Shown here one piece after another: positions 3,014 through 21,506 of a stretch of DNA of 36,330 nucleotides. Source of the stretch: Bdellovibrionota bacterium (lineage in GTDB: Bacteria > Bdellovibrionota_C > UBA2361 > OMII01); NCBI GenBank assembly GCA_044356425.1, contig JBIKWG010000003.1, positions 1 through 36,330 of the forward strand, written 5' to 3'. The notes beneath the pieces are model-generated. The model was not told the origin of the DNA, searched no databases, and was given only the letters and a program-made list of their open reading frames with translations. The translations under genes were made by a program, and so were the position numbers. How positions within the stretch are numbered: the stretch's first letter is position 1; each line of letters starts with the position of its first letter.

Positions 3014-4168
3014 CTAGTGACCAAGCCACGAAATTGCCCTGCAGCGGCGGCTATAGGACGCATGCGAGTGTATCGCGCTTGAAACTGTGCCAGCAACTCC
3101 AGATGACACCAGAAAGGGAAGAGCCACTCGGCCCATTTTCGTCGCGAACGTCATCGACGTGAGCTTTGTAAAGCCTCGCAGATCACGGGTTTGGTCGTAC
3201 CGATTACGCTCATACTCATGTAGCTCATTTGATATATTCGAAGCGGATAGCGCTTTAAGGATGTGCTTGCCTGCGAGTTTTCCCGAGATCAGCGCGTGCG
3301 TCATTCCAAATCCGGCGCAAGGGTCAAACGTCTCGCATGCATCTCCGACAACAAAGGCTCCACGGCATTGAGCTCCGCGGTGAAGCGAGCCAATAGCCCC
3401 GCTGCTTAGTGGCACCTCGGTGGGTTCAAGGCTCAGCTTCAAATATCTGCTCAACAGCTCAACCTGGCTGGCGAGGCGACGAAGATGCGCAAACGGCTGT
3501 ACGAGAGCGACACCCCCAAGTACAGAGATGTTCACGCGGCTATGAGGTAGCGGCGTCAAATATATCTCCCCGCCCTGCATTAAAAATAGATGCACGCGTG
3601 GAGCTAGAGAACCTTTAATAATTTGCCACTGGGAGCTAGATCCCAGCCGGTCAGTGCGATAAACCGCCGACCCCTCTGAAAGGGCCCTTACGGTCGACGA
3701 CTGTGCGCCATCCGCTGCTACCAGTAGGCGTGTTGAAATAGTTCGGCCCTTGAGCCGCACGGTAAAAACTCCGCAGCTATCGCGTGACACCTGGGGAACT
3801 TCTCCCTGAATTAACTCCACATGTCCTAAGCCCAAAGCATATTGAAGAAGTTTCCAGTCAAGTTGATATCTTTCAACCGCTATCAGCCCTGAATGTGAGG
3901 GGATATGTAATGTACGATCTGCGCGATGGATGCTGTATCCATCAAGTGAGAGATGTGAACAGCCTGTTGTAGCTAGCGAGAACCCTATATCATCCAACTC
4001 AGCACGCCCGCGCGCCGACAAACCCTCACCGCAAGGCTTTCGCCGAGGGAATCTGCCTTTATCGATCACAATAGCCCGCACGCCCATGCGAGCAAGCGTT
4101 GCAGCAGTTGCAGCCCCTGCAAGGGATGCACCGATGATAACTACAGGATCAGACCACATCGTAGCCAT
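3014..4168 (-). CDS. FAD-dependent oxidoreductase/monooxygenase (geranylgeranyl reductase-like family)
   Basis: Rossmann VIIGASLAG, FPRRKPCGEGLS, AADGAQS (DG motif), VGDACETFDPCAGFGM (GD motif). Confidence 0.88.
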   Translation of the reverse strand: MATMWSDPVVIIGASLAGAATAATLARMGVRAIVIDKGRFPRRKPCGEGLSARGRAELDDIGFSLATTGCSHLSLDGYSIHRADRTLHIPSHSGLIAVERYQLDWKLLQYALGLGHVELIQGEVPQVSRDSCGVFTVRLKGRTISTRLLVAADGAQSSTVRALSEGSAVYRTDRLGSSSQWQIIKGSLAPRVHLFLMQGGEIYLTPLPHSRVNISVLGGVALVQPFAHLRRLASQVELLSRYLKLSLEPTEVPLSSGAIGSLHRGAQCRGAFVVGDACETFDPCAGFGMTHALISGKLAGKHILKALSASNISNELHEYERNRYDQTRDLRGFTKLTSMTFATKMGRVALPFLVSSGVAGTVSSAIHSHASYSRRCRAISWLGH

Positions 4169-4218
4169 TCGAAAAAAACAGAGATAGTTGCTTCGCTAAC
4201 AGACATTTCATGCGACAT

Positions 4219-4791
4219 TTATACCAGGCCTGGAATGAACCGAGGCTTCTGTTCCATCTCTTCACGGTAACCTGATATCGAGAAAAGATGCTGCTCTTCA
4301 AGCGCAATCCGCCTGCGCAAAAAAACCGCGTTGCAAATGGTATAGAAGATTGCCGTATAGAGCGCACCACCAACCAGGGGCAGTGTCGCCAACTCAATTA
4401 TCACAACCAGGTAGTTGGGATGTCTGATATAACGATACGGACCATTAGAGACAAATAATCGCCCGTTACTATCGGTAGTCAGTACCGATATATTCCAAAA
4501 CCTTCCCAACGTCCGTAGAGCCCAGAAACGTAGGGCTTGGGAGGCCAAGAATAGTGCGGTTGCAGCGATGCAAACAGCAACAGGAATTGCTGCTGGTAGA
4601 AGTAACTTTTCACAAACAGTACTCGCATACCAGGATCCATGCAGCATCACCATAGCGCGCAATCCTTGTGGACTCTCTCTGTCAGCAAATCCGCGTGCGC
4701 TCATAAATTGCTGATTGCGCCGCGAAACGAGCAGCTCAGTCAGCCGTTCTGCCATGCAGTAAACGAAGAGCACCCAGAACACTGTATCCAT
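4219..4791 (-). CDS. ICMT-family membrane methyltransferase (BpsB/SrsB-like)
   Basis: ERLTELLVSRRN, LRFWALRTLGRFWN, GPYRYIRHPNY, RRIALEE; its ATG overlaps the PKS stop (TGATG). Confidence 0.9.
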   Translation of the reverse strand: MDTVFWVLFVYCMAERLTELLVSRRNQQFMSARGFADRESPQGLRAMVMLHGSWYASTVCEKLLLPAAIPVAVCIAATALFLASQALRFWALRTLGRFWNISVLTTDSNGRLFVSNGPYRYIRHPNYLVVIIELATLPLVGGALYTAIFYTICNAVFLRRRIALEEQHLFSISGYREEMEQKPRFIPGLV

Positions 4792-5831
4792 CAGCTACAC
4801 TCTAAGAGATTTACTTGAAGCGTTAGTCCGGGCCCAACACCCAACATAATTACTCGGTCACCCGGCTTGTACGGCTTCTCCCGCAAAAAGCCATCCAGCG
4901 CAAAGAGGATCGACGCTGAAGACATGTTGCCGTAATCACGCAAACTATCCCAGCTCCACCGCGAACGCTCACGCGATATGCCGAAAGCTTCTTCGAGGCT
5001 TGTTAGAATCTTTACTCCACCCGGGTGAAAAAGCCACCAATCAATCTCACTAACAGATAGCTGAACCGAGGCAAGAAACTGACTTATGACCTCTGGGGCG
5101 GCGCGCAAAAGAGCTTGGGGAATCTCTTTATCGAGCCGCAGGTGAGTGCCTTCATCCTGTATATCATACCCCATTAGATTATGAGTATCGGGAATGAGGA
5201 AAGAGCGACAGAGCGCAAGTTTCAGCGGGCCTGGCTCTCGAGAAATTACTACACACGCTGCGCCGTCTCCGAAAATGGCCGAGCCCACAATATTTCCAGC
5301 GCGAAAGTCAGCCCCCTGGTATACGAGCGAACAGAGCTCAACCGATGCAAGCACCGTCGTGCCACAGGACTCACAAAGCTGCTGAGCAAGCGCTAATCCA
5401 ACCGCACCACCGGCACAGCCGTACTGAAAAACAGGTAGACGAAAGATAGAGGCAGACAAGCCAAGTGGCGTAACAACCTTAGCGTCAATGGCAGGAATAG
5501 CAGGTATAGAGCACGAGGTGCTAATAAGGGCTCCTACGGTGGCAGCTGGAACATGCGCCGCTGACAATCCTTTTCTAATTACATTTGCTAAAAGAGACGC
5601 CCCAACTTCATCAAAGATTTTTGCTCGCTCAGCGGCCCCTTGAAGACCAAGCAGATCTGCCAGAGGCAATGCAAAATTTCGATTCTCTATCTTTGTCGTG
5701 GCGGCAAGGCGCTCAAAAAGTGCTTTCTGCTGGGGGTCGCTTGCTAGCCACGCCGCCGCCGCTTCGGCTATATCGTGCGTCGAATATCGATAGGGAGGCA
5801 GATCAGTAGCAACAGCGTGAATGAATGACAT
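4791..5831 (-). CDS. Type III polyketide synthase (chalcone synthase-like)
   Basis: Intact Cys-His-Asn triad: YGCAGG, FHPGG, GNMSSAS; also SVELCSL, FGDGAA and GVGPGLT. Confidence 0.95.
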   Translation of the reverse strand: MSFIHAVATDLPPYRYSTHDIAEAAAAWLASDPQQKALFERLAATTKIENRNFALPLADLLGLQGAAERAKIFDEVGASLLANVIRKGLSAAHVPAATVGALISTSCSIPAIPAIDAKVVTPLGLSASIFRLPVFQYGCAGGAVGLALAQQLCESCGTTVLASVELCSLVYQGADFRAGNIVGSAIFGDGAACVVISREPGPLKLALCRSFLIPDTHNLMGYDIQDEGTHLRLDKEIPQALLRAAPEVISQFLASVQLSVSEIDWWLFHPGGVKILTSLEEAFGISRERSRWSWDSLRDYGNMSSASILFALDGFLREKPYKPGDRVIMLGVGPGLTLQVNLLECS

Positions 5832-5836
5832 ACAAC

Positions 5837-6439
5837 CTATTTTTTTAACGGCACCGTCGTTTGAATCGAGATGGTAGCAGTTGGGTCAAGCCGCGCTATG
5901 AGAATCGAGGGGTCCTCCACATTAAACTCAGCCCACGATATCTGGATACCTCCACTAATCGCATACCTATTATTCTCTTTAGCAATCTCAACCGGCAGCT
6001 CGATATCTTTGGATACATCACGAATTGTAAGAACTCCTTTTAGCGAACCGCTGCATTTTCCGTGCAGATCGAGCACGACGGGCGAGCAACTCTCTGAGAG
6101 ACGAGTCGAGCGAAAGGAAACGGAGGGAAAGCGTTCTGCTGCCAAAACCTCCAGCATACGTTCATCGCGAGATAGAGAATCTGTATTAAACCAGCGCACG
6201 GGAATAACGATACTTGCCTCTATAGAGAGCGGGTCTGCTACACTGCCCTGAATTACTGTCCCAGAGACCCCCCTGGTAGCACCCCGCACAAGGTGCCACG
6301 TTGAATCAACTTCAAATGAGACGATAGTATTAGAGTCATCTACTGCAATAGGCAGCTGCCACGAAGCTGCGAAAGCAGCTGGTGAGCAAGAGGCAGCTAT
6401 AAACATTAGGATGATATAAGCAGCGTTTTTCACAACCAC
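5837..6439 (-). CDS. YceI-family lipid/polyisoprenoid-binding protein with signal peptide
   Basis: Signal peptide ending AAFA-A; VSFEVDSTWHLVRG, TDSLSRDERM, FPSVSFRS, GVLTIRDVSKDIELP. Start codon uncertain. Confidence 0.88.
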   Translation of the reverse strand: MVVKNAAYIILMFIAASCSPAAFAASWQLPIAVDDSNTIVSFEVDSTWHLVRGATRGVSGTVIQGSVADPLSIEASIVIPVRWFNTDSLSRDERMLEVLAAERFPSVSFRSTRLSESCSPVVLDLHGKCSGSLKGVLTIRDVSKDIELPVEIAKENNRYAISGGIQISWAEFNVEDPSILIARLDPTATISIQTTVPLKK

Positions 6440-6675
6440 AACGGCTAAATCTATGTTCTTACGGTTAGCTCGCTAGTTTAACCCTGTGGCAAAAGACAGG
6501 AAACGAGCATGTACGACTGGAGTCTGCAATAATAGTTTTTGGCAACGTTACCCCGTAACAAACAATCATAATTCCTCCCTAAAACTTTCGCTACTTCTGC
6601 AAATTATATAATAATTGGGGAAAGCAACACGATAATCACGTAATCGAAAATCAGCACAACAGACAGCACAAATTT

Positions 6676-7428
6676 ATGGGTATTAAAAGTTTTGCTCTCT
6701 TAATGGGGGCAACCTGCCATCTGCTCTTCTTTGCATCTGTCGCTGTAATGTTAGCAGCGCTCTTTGGTGAAATGAATCTTTATCAGGGCCCGCTGCGAGG
6801 TTACTCTGCTGTCTGCTTCGACCTGCTGCTACTAATTCAATTCCCCCTGCTGCACTCATTTCTTCTCAGCAGAGGAGGTCGCGCCGCTCTTGCTTCGGTT
6901 TTTCCGCAAGAGTTAGGTAAACATTTAGTTACCACCACATTCGTCATGTGCGCCTCTGTTCAGCTTCTGCTGCTGTTTGGATTATGAGCACACCTTGGAA
7001 CCCAGCAGTGGGCCCCTACTGGGTTCACTCTATCTGTGTGGAAAGGTGCATATGCGATCAGCTGGATATTGCTTGGTCTCTCGATGATCAATGCAGGCCT
7101 CGGAACTCAGATGGGGTACACCGGATGGATTGCGGTTTTTCGCGGCAAAGAGCCTACGTACCCCTCATTTCCTTCACATGGTCTCTACACAATTTGTCGA
7201 CACCCGGTGTATTTCTCGATGGCATTAGTATCTTGCTCTGGCCCAGTATGGAACATAGACCATGTGATTATTAGTGCGGTTTTTATTTCGTATTGCATCG
7301 CTGGACCGATGATAAAGGATCGTCGTTTTCGCAAAAAGTTTGGCGACGCCTTTGTGGCCTATCACAACAGTGTGCCATTTTATCCAACACCTACGTCCTG
7401 CTTTCGGGCGCTGTTTCGTCGCCGCTAA
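6676..7428 (+). pseudogene. MddA/nurim-like ICMT-superfamily membrane methyltransferase interrupted by one in-frame TGA (6985-6987); pseudogene, sequence error or recoded gene
   Basis: ORFs 6676..6987 and 7036..7428 are in the same frame. Reading through gives about 250 aa with DLLLLIQFPLLHS, LLLFGL*AHLGTQQW, GLYTICRHPVY and KFGDAFVAYHNSVP. Confidence 0.8.
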
Positions 7429-9325: not shown

Positions 9326-10159
9326 CTAAGGCAGCCTGCTCTTCGGCACAATTCCGCGCACAGCGAGCGGTCGGAACTGCGGCAACGGGTAGCCTTGTGT
9401 AGTGCGTGTTGTGGGAGCAGCGAGACGCTGCGGTCCGATAAGCAGCAGCGAGACCTGCGCGTCAGCATTTAGAACCTCAATAGCGCCTTGGGCAGATAGG
9501 ATGGTGACCTTTACTCGTTCTGATGTGGATGTCGAAATTGACGCGATCGACACATCGCCACCTGCGATTATGAGCAGGTCACTGCTAGTAATGATGGCAC
9601 CCTCGCCGCGGACATCGCCGAGAGATGCAATGATGCCATACCCTGCTTCTTTGTGATGCCGCAGCGTAAGTGTATTAAACTTTATATTCTCTGCTAGAAT
9701 AAGATTGTCTGTTAATTCACCTGAAACCGTACAGGTCACGGGATGCGCAGGCGCACTGAATTGCTGTCGACGGTTTGGCACCTCAATGCCGGGGCAATGA
9801 GTTATGGTTTTAAAGATCTCGTGATAGTCAGGCACACCAGTTGGAAGCGGGAGCATTGCCGAAGTCTTTAACTGAGGATTCCCCTCACTACAGCCCATCC
9901 ACTCGACTGATGCCCCGTGTGAAGCAATAAAAAACGGAGCGCAGCTTGCTGTGAGCCCACGATCTTTTGTTAGATATGCACCTACACGCGCAAAAAGATC
10001 ATCAGCTTGCGCTGAAATTCCAGCTCCAAGTGCCCATGCATGTCCAGCATTCAGGGCAAGTAAAACCAGCGACTGCAGTAGGAGCATCCCAAAAATCACC
10101 GGAAGAAGAACAAATCCAGCACGACTGCGCTGCAGTTTGCGCGAACGGCGACTGAACAT
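9326..10159 (-). CDS. PilX/GspK-like minor (pseudo)pilin
   Basis: Basic leader then RAG|FVLLPVIFG with no Glu5, as in the PilX/GspK class; last gene of a four-pilin run. Confidence 0.7.
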   Translation of the reverse strand: MFSRRSRKLQRSRAGFVLLPVIFGMLLLQSLVLLALNAGHAWALGAGISAQADDLFARVGAYLTKDRGLTASCAPFFIASHGASVEWMGCSEGNPQLKTSAMLPLPTGVPDYHEIFKTITHCPGIEVPNRRQQFSAPAHPVTCTVSGELTDNLILAENIKFNTLTLRHHKEAGYGIIASLGDVRGEGAIITSSDLLIIAGGDVSIASISTSTSERVKVTILSAQGAIEVLNADAQVSLLLIGPQRLAAPTTRTTQGYPLPQFRPLAVRGIVPKSRLP

Positions 10160-10163
10160 ATCG

Positions 10164-11054
10164 TTACGCCACCCCCAGCTCATTCCACAAACCACGCAAG
10201 CGAAACAGGCGCGGAACTATCAGATGCAGGGCCGGAACCCCAGATGCCCTTACTACTACATCAAAGTATTCGACCTGTGGAGTTACAGATTTTCTTACGA
10301 TGCTGAGCGACCGTAATCCCCGCACAATCGGCTGATTCTCGATTATTCGGTCCCCAACATGCGAAACGAGGCGGAACTGGCCCGAGCGGTCGATAAACAG
10401 AGAGTATTCACGGCGCACTGGCCACACAGCGATGAAACCTTGGGGCACAATATCTTTTTGATTGAGTATGCTCGGTATCGCCCTGCCGGCAAATGAGCCG
10501 CAGCCAGCGGTTCCTCGTCGCAGCTCACCCACCAATGCTGTGGGTCCGCCTGGGCCCACAGCAACAAAGCTTCGAAAATCGTCCGAGTATGGAACTGCTG
10601 CAAAGCTACATGCAAAGAAAGAGACCGTACTGGCCTGGAAAGATGTGCTCGATACGATCCCGCGATGAAGTGGTGATACTTCGATAACCGAGAGAACATC
10701 AGAACCAGACCGTGGTGCAGAAGTTCCTCCGAGCGATAGCAGAGGGTGCTTATCCTGTGCGAGCCGATCTTGAGCGACAACAAAAGGCCCGAGGTTGCTA
10801 CGAGTGCGATCTGCATCAGAGATCGCAGACCGCAAAATCGCACCCGCCTTTAGTTGCGCCAAGCTTGCGCTCGCCCCAGCGGCATTGAACCCTATGTTTT
10901 GAGACATGAGTGTCACCGCGTGACTAATTGCAAGCGCCGTTAGGGCAGCAACCCCGAGGCCAACCACCAGCTCGAGCAAGCTCCATCCACTCTCAGCCAC
11001 GCGGCATCTATGCAATCTGAGAACCACGCACTCTCCTACTTTAAGACGTTCCAT
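10164..11054 (-). CDS. PilW/GspJ-like minor pilin
   Basis: Class III signal ESG|WSLLELVVGLGV; C-terminal NQPIVRGLRSLSI resembles PilW/GspJ ends. Confidence 0.75.
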   Translation of the reverse strand: MERLKVGECVVLRLHRCRVAESGWSLLELVVGLGVAALTALAISHAVTLMSQNIGFNAAGASASLAQLKAGAILRSAISDADRTRSNLGPFVVAQDRLAQDKHPLLSLGGTSAPRSGSDVLSVIEVSPLHRGIVSSTSFQASTVSFFACSFAAVPYSDDFRSFVAVGPGGPTALVGELRRGTAGCGSFAGRAIPSILNQKDIVPQGFIAVWPVRREYSLFIDRSGQFRLVSHVGDRIIENQPIVRGLRSLSIVRKSVTPQVEYFDVVVRASGVPALHLIVPRLFRLRGLWNELGVA

Positions 11055-11266
11055 TTACGGGATCCGCAAACGCAAGAGAACGCGACCCCATCATCATTGC
11101 AGCTCGGGATATTACAGTCGGGCTCAAGCTGTCTGCGAATATCGTGACCGACGCGCGAGCTTCGCGTGATAGCCATTGCAATCGTACAAGTGGTGCTTCC
11201 GATTAGCAGGAGAGCAATCAACGCCTCAACGAGCAGTGTTCCAGCTTGACGAGTGTTCTTCAGCAT
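11036..11266 (-). CDS. PilV/GspI-like small minor pilin
   Basis: RQAG|TLLVEALIALLLIG; four C-terminal Cys; overlaps both neighbours. Confidence 0.72.
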   Translation of the reverse strand: MLKNTRQAGTLLVEALIALLLIGSTTCTIAMAITRSSRVGHDIRRQLEPDCNIPSCNDDGVAFSCVCGSRKWNVLK

Positions 11267-11706
11267 ATGACGGTGATCCTGGTCCTAAGCGAGACAACGA
11301 TTGAACAAGAGAGTGTTCGAGACTTAAGAACGAAAGTTGCTGGCGTCGCGGATACGGTAGGATAAAATGTGAGCAGATGTCGGCTCTCACCTTGAGAGAT
11401 GAGGCGCAGGGATAATGGTAGATGCCGAACAAGAATCGAGGTACCCCCCTGATACTTGAGACTAATCGCATTCTTCGTTATCTCGGCGTCAACTCCCTGC
11501 ATCGAGGCGACAGCCAACATGGCCGCCTGCTCAAGGACCAACTTGATCGATTCGGCTTCTGTGCGGATAACTCGCCGCTCTCGCAATTCAGGCAGGTCTA
11601 CGGCCGCGACAGCGCAAGCTATCCCCAACACCGCCAGAACCACCATACATTCGACGAGCGAGACGCCAGCTTGCTGTGCTTTCATAACAGAGCAATCGCT
11701 GCTCAT
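11260..11706 (-). CDS. FimT/GspH-like minor pilin
   Basis: QQAG|VSLVECMVVLAVLGI, then EAESIKLVLEQAAMLA and LTFYPT..ATPATFVL. Start could be 11730, 11706 or 11685. Confidence 0.8.
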   Translation of the reverse strand: MSSDCSVMKAQQAGVSLVECMVVLAVLGIACAVAAVDLPELRERRVIRTEAESIKLVLEQAAMLAVASMQGVDAEITKNAISLKYQGGTSILVRHLPLSLRLISQGESRHLLTFYPTVSATPATFVLKSRTLSCSIVVSLRTRITVIC

Positions 11707-12429
11707 CAGAAAAAGTTTCTTGCACAACACTCAAAAAGCGCTCTGCCGATCCAGAAAGAGGGGCGCTCGTGCTCTGTGAGGTTGATATGGCCAGTTACGC
11801 AAGAGATACCCTGAACTTTGAGAGGGTGCTCGTAATCAGGATAGAGCTCTTACCAGCGTAAAAAGATGCTGTGAAGCTGGATATTCTTCAGCCTCGTGTC
11901 GCTATCGGTCGCTTTCAAGCAGAAACGTAAATACTCTCAAAGCTATAAGTTGCCCAACCTCTCTGGATTGGGGGTAGGGACTGCGCAGTCTTTTAAAACA
12001 CCTCCCGGATGAGGTTTCCATGCAGAGGTACCTCGCCTACGAAAGGAGCGAATCTCAAATTGAAAATCGTACCAGCCCTCATAAGCAGTACAGCGCTTCT
12101 GAATCCTTGGTCCATTTTTTCTTGGACTTCTCCTTGCACCATCGATGAGCTTGAATTTGTCTACTGTAAACATTTAGGAAGACTTTACGTGAGTCACAAT
12201 CTTTCAATATTCCAAGTTAGTTCGTTGTTGTTGGGGCTATCCCGACGATTCTGCGACCTCTTTGGGCATTAGATTCCGCTTCATCTTGCTGGCGGGATTG
12301 AACTGCTGGCAAGAAATTCCCGAGACGTAAACCACCTCGAAATCCACGCCAGTAGGGAAAAAACAACAGCTCCGGTCTAGTGACCAATGGCTGTCTGCTT
12401 TTTCTCCTTTTGCTGAAAGGGAAAAGACT

Positions 12430-15745: not shown

Positions 15746-16003
15746 ATGGCCAGGATCCCGTGGAGCCGAATTCAAGACGCATTCGAAGGTGAATGGATAG
15801 AGCTAGTAGACTTTGCGTGGAAGGCTGAGCGGTTGCACCCTCACGCCGGTCGCGTGCGCCACCACAGCTCAAACCGCAGAGAGCTTCTTGAGATGATCGC
15901 CAAATCGGGTCGCTCTGAAGATGCGATCGTTCTATACGTTGGGCCGTCATTTCCAACAGCACTCGCATCGAGCTCTGAGCTTGGTGCCAGCAGTGTATGC
16001 TAA
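15746..16003 (+). CDS. Small hypothetical protein (DUF5678-like)
   Basis: RBS GAAGGGGG before ATG 15746; WSRIQDAFEGEWIELVD...GRVRHHSSNRRELL...VLYVG; overlaps the GH3 start. Confidence 0.6.
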   Translation: MARIPWSRIQDAFEGEWIELVDFAWKAERLHPHAGRVRHHSSNRRELLEMIAKSGRSEDAIVLYVGPSFPTALASSSELGASSVC

Positions 16004-17526
16004 ACGCGACTCCGGCCCTCAGACTCTACGCCCGCTGGCGCACTAGCCAGCTAGCCTCGCTCAATCCAGCGGCGACTCAACGTGCAGAGCTGCTAAAGCT
16101 AGTGCGCAAGGCGAAACACACATCATTCGGGCGACAACACGGTTTCGGCAGTATCTGTTCCGTTGAGGACTATCAGCGCCTCGTTCCGCTGAGAAAGTAC
16201 GAAGACTTCTGGAACGAGTTTTGGAAGCCTTCGTTTCCACATCTTACCGACTGCACTTGGCCCGGGAAGATTCACTATTTTCCGGTTAGCTCTGGAACAT
16301 CGAGCGGAACAACTAAATACATCCCGTTCTCTGACGAGATGCTAAGATCCAACACAAAAGCTGGACTTGATCTTCTGGTTCACCACGTAACAAATCGCCC
16401 CGCGTCTAATATCATGGGCGGACGCAGCTTTATGTTGGGAGGAAGCGCCGATTTGACCTCTCCTGCGCCTGACATTTATTACGGCGACCTCAGCGGCATT
16501 AGTGTAAAGAACCTGCCCTGGTGGGCCCGAGCTCGATATTTTCCACCACCAGAGCTCGCGCTGATTAAGAACTGGGAAGAAAAGATCGAGACGCTCAGTA
16601 AACTCTCGCTAGATGCTGACATACGCATGATATCAGGCGTGCCAGCGTGGATGCTGATCTTCTTCGACAAGTTAAATTCGCTAGTTCCTGAAGCTAGCGG
16701 CCAGCTCGGTCGGATATACAAGAACCTTGAGATGGTGGTGCACGGTGGCGTTAACTTCGCCCCCTACGTCGATCGATTTCGAGAGCTACTCTGTGAAAGC
16801 AACGCCGAACTTCGGGAGGTATACCCCGCAAGCGAGGGATTTATAGCCGTGGCAGACAGGGGCTACGGAGACGGCCTTCGGCTTAGCCTCGATCACGGAA
16901 TCTTCTTTGAATTTGTGCCGCTCGAAGAGCTCGACAGCCCGAACCCAACCCGCCACTGGATTGAAAACGTCGAAGCAGACGTAAACTACGCCGTCGTCAT
17001 GACGACCTGCGCAGGGCTCTGGTCATACATCATCGGCGACACGGTGCGTTTTTGTGACACAAAGACGCCTCGAGTGCTCGTTACGGGCAGAACGTCCTAC
17101 TACCTCTCAGCATTCGGAGAGCACCTGATCGCCGAAGAGATCGAAGATGGCGTCACCACCGCCGCTCGCGCAGTTCAAGCGGAGATCGCTGACTTTACGG
17201 TAGGACCCGTGTTTCCATCCGGATCAGGGGAACTTGGTGGCCATGTGTACATAGTTGAGTTCTCGCGCAATGAGCCGGCTAACGTGCAACTCTCTTGCTT
17301 CGCTCAAGAGCTCGACCGCAAACTTTGCCAACGAAATGAAGACTACGAAGCGCATCGCTCTGAAGGATTCGGGTTAAAGCCGCCGCAGATCATCGTTGCC
17401 AAACCCGGCTGCTTTGCTTCTTGGATGAAGAGTCGCGGAAAGCTCGGTGGCCAAAATAAGGTCCCACGGATTATTACCAATACGCAGATGTTGCACGAAT
17501 TAATTAGCTTTGCGGCCAGCTATTAA
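15997..17526 (+). CDS. GH3-family acyl-acid amido synthetase-like protein
   Basis: Adenylation motifs SSGTSSGTTKYIP, YPASEG, YIIGDTV; C-terminal GKLGGQNKVPR. Confidence 0.93.
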   Translation: MLNATPALRLYARWRTSQLASLNPAATQRAELLKLVRKAKHTSFGRQHGFGSICSVEDYQRLVPLRKYEDFWNEFWKPSFPHLTDCTWPGKIHYFPVSSGTSSGTTKYIPFSDEMLRSNTKAGLDLLVHHVTNRPASNIMGGRSFMLGGSADLTSPAPDIYYGDLSGISVKNLPWWARARYFPPPELALIKNWEEKIETLSKLSLDADIRMISGVPAWMLIFFDKLNSLVPEASGQLGRIYKNLEMVVHGGVNFAPYVDRFRELLCESNAELREVYPASEGFIAVADRGYGDGLRLSLDHGIFFEFVPLEELDSPNPTRHWIENVEADVNYAVVMTTCAGLWSYIIGDTVRFCDTKTPRVLVTGRTSYYLSAFGEHLIAEEIEDGVTTAARAVQAEIADFTVGPVFPSGSGELGGHVYIVEFSRNEPANVQLSCFAQELDRKLCQRNEDYEAHRSEGFGLKPPQIIVAKPGCFASWMKSRGKLGGQNKVPRIITNTQMLHELISFAASY

Positions 17527-17674
17527 CGCGCACAAAGAGCAGAATCCCTCACATTAGCGCCAAAGCGTAACGCACTAACGTGACTTACAAACCAACCACT
17601 GGCAGCCCAGACCTGACCCCTCTTGAGTCTCCACTTGTTTGCATTGGCAGTCTTGTTGGGGCTAGACTGAGGCT

Positions 17675-18430
17675 ATGATCAGCCCGTCACTGCTGCCTAT
17701 TATCGCCCTTTATCTCGTTACCTTACTGGGCGACGGATGCATCATTATTGCGATGGCCGTTGTGGCAACCATGGGGGGCAGCCCCTGGGCCTGGGGTGCA
17801 AGCTTTGCCGCCTTTCATGCCGTATACTCTCTTGCTGGACTAGCCCTAGCAACCGAGCTCTCTCTTTACTCTCAACTCGTGGGCGATCTCTTTGCTCTCA
17901 CCGGCGCGCTTGTTTTGCTCAGTCACTTTGTGCACCACAGGCTTCATCACGGCTCACATGGCGATTGTCGATGTGAGAACCACGAACCCAAGCCAGCGTC
18001 GGCTGGAACGATGCTCTCAACTGCCGGCACCCTCTCAATTCACGCTCTTGCCGCTGGCCCAGTTTTACAACGCACTCTGGGAGATAGCGCGGTCGCCTTA
18101 ATTGTGCCGCTTCTCTTCGTCGCATCACTGCTTCTCGGAGCAGTGATTGCAGCCATCGTTCTACTCGGAGAAACTCAACGTCACAGGATCTTGCGCGCCC
18201 TCGATCAGCTTCCGGGAGTCGTCTCAACTATCCTGAGCTGCATCAGCTTTTTTATGCTCTTTCATGCAATCGAAGAGATCTATGAGTTTACTCAGTTAAC
18301 GCTAGCTCTCTATGCAGTTGCTGCTGCAGCAGCATCAGCAACCTTAGGAATTTACATACATCAGCGCAGTGCCACCCGAAACAGCCCCAACGTAATTCAC
18401 ATAGCTCCTCGTAAGGCTCAGACACACTAA
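17675..18430 (+). CDS. Polytopic membrane protein with His/Cys-rich loop; putative transition-metal transporter (MntP/RcnA-like)
   Basis: About 7 hydrophobic segments; HFVHHRLHHGSHGDCRCENH loop; FAAFH and TLSIHALAAG motifs. Confidence 0.55.
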   Translation: MISPSLLPIIALYLVTLLGDGCIIIAMAVVATMGGSPWAWGASFAAFHAVYSLAGLALATELSLYSQLVGDLFALTGALVLLSHFVHHRLHHGSHGDCRCENHEPKPASAGTMLSTAGTLSIHALAAGPVLQRTLGDSAVALIVPLLFVASLLLGAVIAAIVLLGETQRHRILRALDQLPGVVSTILSCISFFMLFHAIEEIYEFTQLTLALYAVAAAAASATLGIYIHQRSATRNSPNVIHIAPRKAQTH

Positions 18431-18625
18431 ATAAGATTCCAAAAAGCCTCGCCGTTAAGAGACTTCTGAAAGAGCAAGCCTGGAACAGATTCTTTAACCG
18501 AATGTTTTAATTATACGACAAGAAAGCTGCGCAAATCGCCGGTAAAGGGGTAGGCAGAGCCCCCCAATTCCTCTAGTATTTGGCTTGATATTGATATTGC
18601 AACCTTTACCTTTTCGAGCGCTACC

Positions 18626-19546
18626 GTGGCTACACAGACTTCTCTAACTCCTACCGCGAGCACCGTCGGAAACCCTCTTCATCCGATGAATTTAATTAAG
18701 CAGCTTTTTTTCTGGGCCATTCACCTGGGATGCTTCGGTGTAATCTGGGTCGGCTTTAGCTGGACAGCGCTTGCTGTGTGCATCTTGCTCTACATCGTTC
18801 GAATGTTTGGTATCACGGGTGTCTATCACCGCTACTTCTCTCATCGCTCATATAAAACTAGTCGGTGGTTTCAGTTCGTACTGGCGGTGCTCGGCGCCTC
18901 CTCTGCACAGAAAGGTCCGATCTGGTGGGCTTCCCATCACCGCCATCATCACCAGCATTCCGACACAGAAGAAGATATCCACCCACCTCGTATTTACGGT
19001 CTCTGGTGGGCGCACGTTGGGTGGGTATTGAGCACTCAGTTTATCGAAACACGTTGGGAGCTTGTTAAAGACCTCGTCCGGTTTCCTGAGCTGCGTTTTC
19101 TAGACAAGTACCACATCTTTGCACCACTTGCGCTTGCAGCTGTCGTTTCTGCGGTAGGTGCTGGCCTTGAGCTGTATTGGCCCGAACTACAAACCTCGGC
19201 TGGTCAGCTTTTCGTATGGGGATTCTGCGTTAGCACAACACTGCTGTATCACGGCACCTTCTGCATCAACTCACTTGCTCACATGCTTGGTCGACCTCGT
19301 TTCGTAACGGGCGATGACAGCAAGAACAGCTTCATCCTTGCGATTATTACTCTCGGCGAAGGGTGGCACAACAACCACCACCGCTATCCTGGTTCTGAGC
19401 GCCAGGGCTTTTACTGGTGGGAGGTAGACATCTCACACTACACTCTAAAAGTGCTGTCGTGGTTTGGGCTGGTATGGGATTTGCGCGAGCCTCCTGCACG
19501 AATTTATCAGGAAGCCGTTGAGAACAAACTCGCTGCTGCTTCGTAA
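18626..19546 (+). CDS. Membrane fatty acid (acyl-CoA, delta-9-type) desaturase
   Basis: Three His boxes: HRYFSH, HRHHH, GEGWHNNHH. Confidence 0.93.
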   Translation: MATQTSLTPTASTVGNPLHPMNLIKQLFFWAIHLGCFGVIWVGFSWTALAVCILLYIVRMFGITGVYHRYFSHRSYKTSRWFQFVLAVLGASSAQKGPIWWASHHRHHHQHSDTEEDIHPPRIYGLWWAHVGWVLSTQFIETRWELVKDLVRFPELRFLDKYHIFAPLALAAVVSAVGAGLELYWPELQTSAGQLFVWGFCVSTTLLYHGTFCINSLAHMLGRPRFVTGDDSKNSFILAIITLGEGWHNNHHRYPGSERQGFYWWEVDISHYTLKVLSWFGLVWDLREPPARIYQEAVENKLAAAS

Positions 19547-19555
19547 TCACTGAGA

Positions 19556-19580
19556 GTGCTGCACCTGTTCGGTGCAGCAC
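19556..19580. terminator. Hairpin between convergent genes (possible bidirectional terminator)
   Basis: Perfect 10-bp inverted repeat GTGCTGCACC-tgttc-GGTGCAGCAC; no U-tract. Confidence 0.45.
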
Positions 19581-19591
19581 CAACCCGCCGA

Positions 19592-19957
19592 CTAACGCGC
19601 ATCTTTCCGATCATCCACTCCTACATCGCGAGAAACCATCCTATCTACCAGGCCGCGAAAATCAACCTTGTTGATTGGGGCTACATCTGGCCGTTTAGCC
19701 GCTGCCGCCCGTTGCTCTAGAGGAACCTTGTCAAGCGAATCAACAAACTGAACCGTTCCAGATGGATCTGTGAAGCGATACAGCCTGCTTGAACTTTTCT
19801 TGAGAGCAGAGAATCCGAATACGAACGCCCCCACGATTGCAACTACCAGTATAAGAATAACGAGCCCGACACCCCGCTGAGCAGAGACTGGTGCTGTCAT
19901 TTGACGAACTAACATCCCACGCTGCATATGAATCCGAAAATTTAACGACGCATTCAC
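19592..19957 (-). CDS. DUF4124-domain protein with N-terminal TM/prepilin-like leader
   Basis: AQRG|VGLVILILVVAIVG then LYRFTDPSGTVQFVDSLDKVP. Start uncertain (19957, 19915 or 19900). Confidence 0.72.
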   Translation of the reverse strand: MNASLNFRIHMQRGMLVRQMTAPVSAQRGVGLVILILVVAIVGAFVFGFSALKKSSSRLYRFTDPSGTVQFVDSLDKVPLEQRAAAAKRPDVAPINKVDFRGLVDRMVSRDVGVDDRKDAR

Positions 19958-20201
19958 ACCTACCTTCAGATCGACCGCTTTGGCAAAGAGTTAAGTTTTT
20001 ACTGCTGGTTGGCGACGTTGGTACCCCAACCTGCTGTAATTACCTGGCTATTATAACAACCGTTAGCCCTCTTTCCACGCAGCTACCCCAAACAAGCGAT
20101 AAAATGAATCGGGTATTTCGGCTTTACCATCCTACCCTACTGGGTGTGTGCGTGTGTTGTCCGCACACCTCAAATAAGGCTTGAGGACCAGGATCACAAC
20201 G

Positions 20202-21506
20202 GTGCGAGTACTATTACTTAATCAAGACTGGTGGGCAGCGGAGCTTCGGGAACTCGGTCACGAGGTAATGAGTTGTGGGGACTTTCCCCATCTCGATGCT
20301 AAACCGATCATCCCCTATGCTCATATTAACACTTTAATTGAGCACCTCCCCAACAAGTTCGTACCTGATGTAATTATTTGGCTAGACAACAGCACCCCCC
20401 TCTTTCTTCAGGGGCTTGAAGATTGTGATATCCCAATTGTTCTCTACAGCGTCGATACGCACCATCACTACGTACTTCACTCGCACCTAGCAGAGTGCGT
20501 TGACCACGTCTTTGTGGCGCAAAAAGACTACCTCTCGTGCTTTGCGAATTGCACAACGCCAGCCTCATGGCTTCCTCTGTGGGCCTCGCGGAACATGCAG
20601 GCATCTGCCGAGAAGAAATACGCTGCCACTTTTGTAGGAACGCTCAATCCGCGACTCAATCCTGAACGAGTAGCTTTTTTTCAAGAGCTTGAGAAGATCG
20701 CGCCGGTTACATTTCAGACCGGTGACTTCTCACAAATATTTCCGTACTCAGAAATAGTAATCAATCAAACCGTAAAGCTCGACCTGAACTTTCGAGTATT
20801 CGAAGCCATGGCGAGTGGAGCGTTACTTCTGACTGAAAAAACAGAGAATGGGCTCTTCGACCTCTTTCAGGACGACCATCATTTCATAACCTACACCCAC
20901 AACGATCCGAAAGAGGCTGCAGAGAAAATCAAATGGGCACTCGCCCACCCACAAATCATGCGTACGATCGCTCAAAATGGTCGGGATGAGATACTAAAAA
21001 AACACTCGACCGCTCACAGAGCCGCAACCGTACACGAGCTTATTACCAACATAAAAAAGCTCCCCCGACGCCCGGAACGCCACTACAGTGCGATGATTAA
21101 TCACGGGATCGTAACTAACCTTACTCATCTAAAAACAGGGGTCTATCCTGTTAGCCCACTAATTGCCGCTATTCAATCAGCATCTACAGCGCTTGAAGAG
21201 GGCGCCAAGCCAAATCCTTTTCACTCGGCTCACCTTATCCAGATCGTTATGGCGTATGACCGCCTGATGTCTACCGGATCTGGATTAACTCTTTTAAGAC
21301 GCTTTGCAGCAGCTTTTCCTGAAGCTCCCCTACTGCAGCTAGCCGAAATTAGACATTTATTGAACAGCGGGAGCGTCGCCGAGGCAACTAGCCTCGCCCG
21401 AAAACTGACGACAGAATCTCCAGAGAAGGTTTTTAGCGTCGCAGAAGAAATTATCACCGGCATCCTTTCATCGGGCGTTGAAGATCCGGTTCTTCCACTA
21501 GCCTAG
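20202..21506 (+). CDS. GT-B glycosyltransferase (CgeB/Glyco_trans_1_2-like) with helical C-terminal extension
   Basis: YSVDTH, DHVFVAQK, WLPLWA, FVGT, INQTVKLDLNFRVFEAMASGALLLT; probable GTG start at 20202. Confidence 0.85.
   Translation: MRVLLLNQDWWAAELRELGHEVMSCGDFPHLDAKPIIPYAHINTLIEHLPNKFVPDVIIWLDNSTPLFLQGLEDCDIPIVLYSVDTHHHYVLHSHLAECVDHVFVAQKDYLSCFANCTTPASWLPLWASRNMQASAEKKYAATFVGTLNPRLNPERVAFFQELEKIAPVTFQTGDFSQIFPYSEIVINQTVKLDLNFRVFEAMASGALLLTEKTENGLFDLFQDDHHFITYTHNDPKEAAEKIKWALAHPQIMRTIAQNGRDEILKKHSTAHRAATVHELITNIKKLPRRPERHYSAMINHGIVTNLTHLKTGVYPVSPLIAAIQSASTALEEGAKPNPFHSAHLIQIVMAYDRLMSTGSGLTLLRRFAAAFPEAPLLQLAEIRHLLNSGSVAEATSLARKLTTESPEKVFSVAEEIITGILSSGVEDPVLPLA

Follow-up and report, generated by a model that had tools for sequence, protein, structure and literature searches.

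We analyzed a 36,330-nucleotide stretch of DNA (the window), which is one entire contig of an uncultured lake bacterium of the Bdellovibrionota (host genome 3.0 Mb, 87.6% complete) and is present in lake-water metagenomes. The window carries a four-gene operon built around a type III polyketide synthase (PKS). As judged from sequence, this operon probably directs synthesis of a membrane lipid, a long-chain alkylresorcinol or alkyl(hydro)quinone with one O-methyl group and a hydroxylated ring, whose tail would be bound in the periplasm by a secreted YceI protein, and a divergent MddA-like methyltransferase gene is probably non-functional in this host. The cluster is a conserved variant of a known phenolic-lipid pathway, to which YceI is tightly linked and the MddA-like gene is linked but often broken. 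The features are as follows.

5837..6439, minus strand: yceI, encoding a secreted YceI/lipocalin-like lipid-binding protein of 200 amino acids, of a PKS-linked subfamily (PF04264, 65.5 bits; cut-off 23.7).
4791..5831, minus strand: type III PKS, 346 amino acids (Pfam Chal_sti_synt N and C).
4219..4791, minus strand: ICMT-family (SrsB/BpsB-type) membrane methyltransferase, 190 amino acids (PF04140, 88.5 bits, above the cut-off).
3014..4168, minus strand: flavin adenine dinucleotide (FAD)-dependent oxidoreductase (the flavoprotein), 384 amino acids, geranylgeranyl-reductase/QhpG-like group, predicted ring hydroxylase (PF01494).
6676..7428, plus strand: MddA/nurim-like ICMT-superfamily gene, divergent and interrupted (NF045656, 62.4 bits).
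6985..6987, plus strand: in-frame TGA, codon 104 of the MddA-like gene, Trp in all aligned homologues.
6440..6675: intergenic stretch of 236 nucleotides between the divergent yceI and MddA-like starts, presumed from the layout to be a promoter region.

The minus-strand genes run in the order yceI, PKS, ICMT gene and flavoprotein gene, with a 5-nucleotide gap, a TGATG overlap and a 50-nucleotide gap between them. The coordinates, the spacing and the Pfam matches thus bore out the operon that had been proposed in an earlier sequence-only reading of this DNA. The PKS triad Cys139/His269/Asn302, which that reading had described as intact, was unchanged in 29/29 aligned relatives. The ICMT protein conserved the RHPNY and EE motifs and matched the ICMT structures 5vg9 and 5v7p in the PDB. 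The flavoprotein scored 91.6 bits against TIGR02032, under the cut-off of 158.8, and its best PDB match was 3oz2.

This arrangement resembles srsABC of Streptomyces griseus and pkqABC of Mycobacterium smegmatis and Streptomyces sp. MNU77, which have a PKS, an ICMT-domain O-methyltransferase and an FAD oxidoreductase in the same order. In the srsABC/pkqABC scheme an alkylresorcinol is O-methylated and then oxidized to a quinone (PMC13730376, PMC5916927, PMC9927152). The best structural-database match of the window PKS was Pks11 (E 8e-49, 169.8 bits), a further likeness to the Srs/Pkq type. The Srs/Pkq-type logic of the sequence-only reading is supported, with the intact triad, the PF04140 match and the TGATG overlap among the evidence. 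Unlike srsABC and pkqABC, the window operon begins with a gene for a secreted YceI and is accompanied by an MddA-like gene in divergent orientation, and its host is Gram-negative.

By likeness to these systems, the PKS would extend a long acyl-CoA or acyl carrier protein-bound starter by malonyl (perhaps methylmalonyl) units and close an aromatic ring. The PKS-coupled ICMT enzyme would O-methylate the product in the membrane, by analogy with SrsB and PkqB, and the flavoprotein may hydroxylate the ring to give a methoxy-hydroquinone that would be oxidized to the quinone. YceI would carry the product in the envelope, where it would most plausibly serve as a membrane antioxidant or an auxiliary redox lipid. 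The host has a menB gene over the cut-off, adjoining a UbiA/MenA-family prenyltransferase gene; therefore, the PKS product is not the host's only quinone, and a role as the sole respiratory quinone was rejected in favor of the antioxidant or auxiliary redox role. The menaquinone route varies within the genus: menB was over the cut-off in G000 (C190) and G033, a futalosine-pathway PF02621 gene was found instead of menB in G001 (C50), G006 (C114) and G025 (C62), and G033 additionally keeps a broken PF02621 gene (G033 contigs C22 and C49).

A doubly methylated product, which the sequence-only reading had considered possible, was not supported in this host, because the second methyltransferase is interrupted. 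An in-frame TGA splits the MddA-like gene into a 103-amino-acid open reading frame (ORF) and a second ORF downstream. The codon 104 column was Trp in 15/15 intact relatives and 126/126 wider homologues; the frame retains the other 33 of its 34 invariant residues, and its match to NF045656 (62.4 bits vs a cut-off of 270) spans the whole frame with one TGA. Contigs from six of eight sequencing runs (X1, X2, X3, X5, X6 and X7) spanned the TGA without any differing letter; X4 covered it without bridging, X18 gave nothing, X1 is possibly the source of the window DNA, and contigs lose rare variants. A sequencing error was therefore rejected. The TGA was common to runs dated 2020 and 2024. TGA also terminates the PKS gene and 217 of 1176 long ORFs and is thus an ordinary stop in the host genome. 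Opposite relatives' Trp positions, the host genome had 255 TGG and 2 TGA codons, namely codon 104 and one within the PKS gene that belongs to an antisense frame; with a single genuine TGA against 255 TGG, a genome-wide TGA=Trp code was rejected. Selenocysteine was rejected as well, since the column is Trp and no selenocysteine tRNA was among the 39 tRNAs found in the 87.6% complete genome; these 39 included no suppressor tRNA either. No second MddA-like copy was found in the host genome at this completeness. These results suggest that the window MddA-like gene is a recent pseudogene. The divergent placement of a second methyltransferase thus held, but its intactness did not. The promoter region that it was said to share with yceI is presumed from the divergent layout, with starts 236 nucleotides apart; a consensus promoter scan found 4 promoter-like sites vs 4.8 expected from shuffles. 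A terminator scan was likewise no better than chance. No RNA data set was listed among those containing the stretch, which speaks neither for nor against expression.

We then turned to the relatives, for which counts are descriptions rather than tests, as kin are not independent. The set of 65 loci comprised 61 YceI-anchored loci, the window and three PKS-anchored loci, and record titles for the same YceI subfamily were mostly Bdellovibrionota or Bdellovibrionales. The PKS lay directly after YceI in 53/61 loci of the YceI alignment, and a contig end fell within 500 nucleotides in 3. Among 34 same-genus genomes searched at E<1e-50, 23 had both PKS and YceI, 8 had neither, 2 had the PKS only and 1 had YceI only; one of the PKS-only genomes has a stop-riddled yceI remnant, and the other sits at a contig end. 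An MddA-like match was found in 26 of the 60 relatives searched, and the PKS was present in all 26. Co-occurrence of yceI and the second methyltransferase with the PKS, on which the sequence-only reading had staked its cluster, was thus observed. The flavoprotein, ICMT and MddA-like queries had no match in 5/5 PKS-lacking genomes (94–97% complete), and the flavoprotein was retained elsewhere in the genome in 5/5 genomes whose cluster is without it.

Two layouts recurred. One is that of the window, yceI-PKS-ICMT-(flavoprotein) with the MddA-like gene divergent; in the other, the order is flavoprotein-yceI-PKS-(UbiG-like)-(MddA-like), and a LuxR-like regulator gene frequently precedes it. This regulator gene was upstream of flavoprotein-yceI-PKS in 16/61 loci and divergent in 15 of these 16 (for example L127:4184 and L130:4239). 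ICMT was present in 29/65 loci and a UbiG-like methyltransferase in 6/65, with both in 0/65, and the UbiG-like proteins tested passed the TIGR01983 cut-off. This pattern suggests that ICMT and UbiG-like proteins are interchangeable ring O-methyltransferases. The MddA-like gene follows the PKS immediately in L123, L131, L150 and L154, precedes it in L174, L190, L201 and L216, and so stays with the PKS across several rearrangements. In some versions it is the only nearby methyltransferase after the PKS, and in others it is paired with the UbiG-like gene; in relatives, its protein probably serves this pathway as an accessory methyltransferase. Elsewhere, an IS200-like transposase separates the MddA-like gene from yceI (L046:5106-6068), and a UbiE/MenG-like methyltransferase gene (L063:6149-6931) follows a distant PKS (29% identity) accompanied by the same yceI and flavoprotein genes.

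Across the loci, 24 MddA-like copies were intact, 8 broken and 1 cut; L154 was counted as intact, its stop falling at residue 243 of 254 in an unconserved tail. The lesions in other relatives include a frameshift, a truncation and several stops, and L108 has a single TGA at a different invariant Trp. Broken copies made up 8/21 in ICMT-type loci vs 0/11 in the others (Fisher p=0.03, without correction for kinship). On the PKS tree, which is a quick version, several of the broken copies have sisters that are intact; the MddA-like tree was made with FastTree and its deep support is weak. The read-level check of the break covers the window only, and some breaks in relatives could be assembly errors. 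The PKS (58), ICMT (29) and flavoprotein (47) genes were never scored as broken, and YceI was broken in 2, in a search that itself favored intact YceI. The ratio of nonsynonymous to synonymous substitution (dN/dS) was 0.09–0.11 for intact MddA-like pairs and 0.15 for L108 against its intact sister; values for the window's own genes were mostly saturated. Therefore, the MddA-like gene appears useful where it is kept and is often dispensable.

Among the matches listed, the MddA-like clade also occurred in Planctomycetota, Hydrogenedentota and Pseudomonadota. We kept 80 of 355 confirmed MddA-like loci from metagenomes. YceI was a neighbor in 16 and a UbiG-like gene in at least 25. L174 contains all five gene families in the same direction, and L187 and L190 have the order YceI-domain protein, small ORF, UbiG-like, MddA-like, PKS; PKSs of L190-type loci were 30–35% identical to the window PKS, with Trp or Phe at position 222. 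One large subclade has a UbiG-like neighbor, with a photolyase-FAD-domain gene in 6 loci, and no PKS was found near it in the retrieved flanking DNA. The MddA-like protein is thus a recurrent, non-obligate partner of the PKS. The photolyase-FAD-binding-domain family adjoins the MddA-like gene in L213, L217, L219, L228, L229 and L231 of the metagenome loci and in L026, L028, L030, L031 and L032 of the relatives; the host's own gene of this family is on contig C108, and this neighbor hints at a link to light or oxidative stress. MMPL-family transporter genes, possibly lipid exporters, adjoin MddA-like-bearing PKS clusters at L157:1335-3749 and L174:2281-4575.

A described counterpart weakened the statement that no characterized cluster has these extra genes. 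The 'Saltatorellus ferox' Poly30 operon encodes a lipoprotein, a lipid/isoprenoid-binding protein, two methyltransferases and a type III PKS that groups with Pks11/SrsA-type enzymes and made alkyl- and methyl-alkylresorcinols (Milke et al. 2024, PMC10896814). Compared by description only, its lipid-binding protein, two methyltransferases and PKS recall the clusters of relatives, and L187 and L190 share its layout with UbiG-like and MddA-like genes; unlike the window, it has a lipoprotein gene and is without a flavoprotein gene. The best 120 matches of the family searches included none named as an 'S. ferox' protein, and the parts of the PMC10896814 supplement that were searched gave no family annotation for Poly30_13900/13910. 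The hidABC cluster and a planctomycete methyltransferase-oxidoreductase-PKS operon (PMC6836626, PMC10896814) likewise combine a PKS, a methyltransferase and an FAD oxidoreductase, but with one methyltransferase, without YceI and in another gene order than yceI-PKS-ICMT-flavoprotein; hierridins are hydroxylated, doubly O-methylated alkylresorcinols (PMC6836626). Among the papers listed in literature searches, with most subscription journals outside them, none dealt with a YceI-PKS cluster of this lineage or assigned an MddA-like enzyme to PKS-based biosynthesis.

Several observations weigh against the assignment of the operon and its partners to one methylated phenolic-lipid pathway. The flavoprotein is closer to geranylgeranyl reductases and QhpG than to UbiH-type hydroxylases and falls below every cut-off. 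PKS position 222 is Tyr in 53/57 loci and aligns with Trp of Pks11 and Tyr of the tetrahydroxynaphthalene (THN) synthase; Tyr222 corresponds to THN synthase Tyr224, Cys107 to Cys106, and Cys167 to the Cys at position 194 of chalcone synthase (CHS). In 5/61 YceI loci with flanking sequence available (L109, L125, L129, L148 and L153), there was no adjacent PKS. A PKS was near the MddA-like gene in only 12/80 metagenome loci, and in 7/35 among loci of at least 6 kb. Finally, the two 'S. ferox' methyltransferases caused no detectable product change in C. glutamicum, and their role is unexplained (PMC10896814).

It is possible, although somewhat unlikely, that the MddA-like gene acts outside the lipid pathway as a co-regulated stress passenger, for example encoding a membrane reductase or an S-methyltransferase for thiols (H2S/methanethiol), which would explain its easy loss. 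NF045656 (MddA) was the only NCBIfam model matched by intact homologues, and MddA itself, a methanethiol/H2S S-methyltransferase, is a multi-helix ICMT-superfamily membrane protein like this clade (PMC11445057). The predicted structure of an intact homologue (pLDDT 95.9) has an ICMT/sterol-reductase fold in which the two are not separable. Its top matches were 4quv, 5vg9 and 4a2n (profile match to 4a2n, E 0.004), with a sterol reductase (Z 10.7, root-mean-square deviation 4.1, 122 residues aligned) tied with ICMT structures (Z 9.7, 3.3 and 124; Z 9.5, 2.4 and 123), and Foldseek returned nothing at E<=0.001. The subclade with UbiG-like and photolyase-FAD genes, and the loss of 8 of 33 copies beside intact PKS, ICMT and flavoprotein genes, also fit a passenger. 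However, five intact homologues scored only 50.7–91.2 bits against the MddA cut-off of 270, and the clade further differs from MddA in its linkage to PKS, UbiG-like and YceI genes and in the broken window copy. Moreover, the gene is restricted among relatives to those bearing the PKS (26/26) and keeps its company, directly after or before it, through rearrangements. We therefore retain an accessory role in the lipid pathway as the preferred reading of intact copies.

The product class is uncertain because the PKS has a THN-synthase-like Tyr222 where Pks11 has Trp. We infer that this column is that of ArsB Trp281. The Trp in ArsB/PkqA has been tied to resorcinol formation (PMC9927152), and it is absent from the window PKS. 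THN synthase 1u0m was moreover the third-best PDB match (E 2.8e-44, 154.8 bits). A pyrone or short-chain product is thus possible; yet we consider it unlikely that the PKS makes ICMT-methylated alkylpyrones, as BpsAB does, or a malonyl-started polyketide of the THN/naphthoquinone type. A flavoprotein is not known to have a role in the BpsAB scheme, which counts against the pyrones. The cavity set of the RppA/THN synthase (T132C, T194C, T197C, G256Y and S338A in CHS numbering; PMC6274091) was matched at 3/5 positions by the window's C107, C167, V170, Y222 and S304: Val170 and Ser304 depart from the expected Cys and Ala. Pks11 outscored the THN synthase (169.8 vs 154.8 bits), an aromatic residue at the site of Tyr222 has been reported to promote resorcinol closure (PMC6274091), and the membrane ICMT and the tail-binding YceI favor a long-chain lipid.

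The predicted YceI structure (pLDDT 89.5) has the YceI beta-barrel fold, with best Foldseek matches to 1wub, BcnA (5ixh) and E. coli YceI (1y0g) at E 1e-11 to 1e-9. A hydrophobic N-terminal leader was found in 25/25 homologues by a crude hydropathy test rather than a dedicated predictor, in agreement with the signal peptide noted earlier. The window protein shares the barrel and secretion with the YceI lipocalins TT1927b, BcnA/BcnB and E. coli YceI (1wub, 5ixh, 5ixg, 1y0g) but only 13–23% identity, and it has an invariant Cys118/Cys129 pair and a DPSI motif (alignment of 25); its gene is linked to the PKS, whereas bcnA is linked to a cytochrome b561 (PMC9113575). The tunnels of characterized YceI proteins contain octaprenyl compounds or ubiquinone-8, and lipid peroxidation is counteracted by BcnA (PMC9113575). 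With a host that makes menaquinone by gene content and a few YceI copies without a PKS, the protein could serve generically as an isoprenoid-quinone or antioxidant carrier, sharing no more than a transcript with the PKS and leaving the PKS product unbound; we judge this improbable. Against it, many of these genomes also contain generic YceI matches of about 20–45 bits, from which the PKS-linked subfamily (about 200–285 bits) is distinct, and this subfamily appears and disappears together with the PKS. Binding of the PKS product thus remains our preferred role for YceI.

Low-level reading of the TGA as Trp, giving some second methyltransferase and a partly doubly methylated lipid, is very improbable: a sole lesion at a Trp codon in an otherwise conserved frame, the similar TGA of L108 with its dN/dS of 0.15 and the persistence across the 2020 and 2024 runs would suit it, but TGA is the normal stop that ends the PKS itself, Trp is not recoded genome-wide, no suppressor tRNA was among those found, the frameshift, truncation and multiple stops of relatives point to dispensability, and a recent nonsense change, TGG to TGA being a single transition, would leave the same traces.

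Elsewhere in the window, a plus-strand group at 15997-21506 (genes for a GH3-family acyl-adenylate enzyme and a fatty-acid desaturase, with an unassigned ORF of 251 amino acids between them, and a glycosyltransferase-like gene) is possibly another lipid-modifying group. Three minus-strand ORFs of pilin/pseudopilin type lie at 9326-11730, one of them with the Pfam N-methyl motif. The region 265-2982 holds a TerB-like gene, a short flagellin of 272 amino acids and a 324-amino-acid ORF that is convergent on the flavoprotein gene and had no match in Pfam or NCBIfam.

On a broader and more speculative view, which we put forward tentatively and with considerable doubt, the MddA-like clade would be a group of undescribed phenolic-lipid O-methyltransferases, and the YceI subfamily would act in the periplasm as a chaperone dedicated to polyketide (hydro)quinones. 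The whole would be a modular system for envelope antioxidants or redox lipids with interchangeable ICMT and UbiG-like enzymes, and repeated loss of the MddA-like gene would be how lake lineages turn off the second methylation. If the proposed pathway is correct, phenolic lipids of the Srs/Pkq type would extend to a widespread uncultured freshwater lineage, and the YceI protein would be a first candidate for phenolic-lipid transport in a Gram-negative envelope. The window's second methyltransferase is broken, and intact copies are found in relatives such as L028, L031 and L174; the pathway would offer a testable substrate for this MddA-related clade, whose members are sometimes labeled in databases as methanethiol S-methyltransferases.

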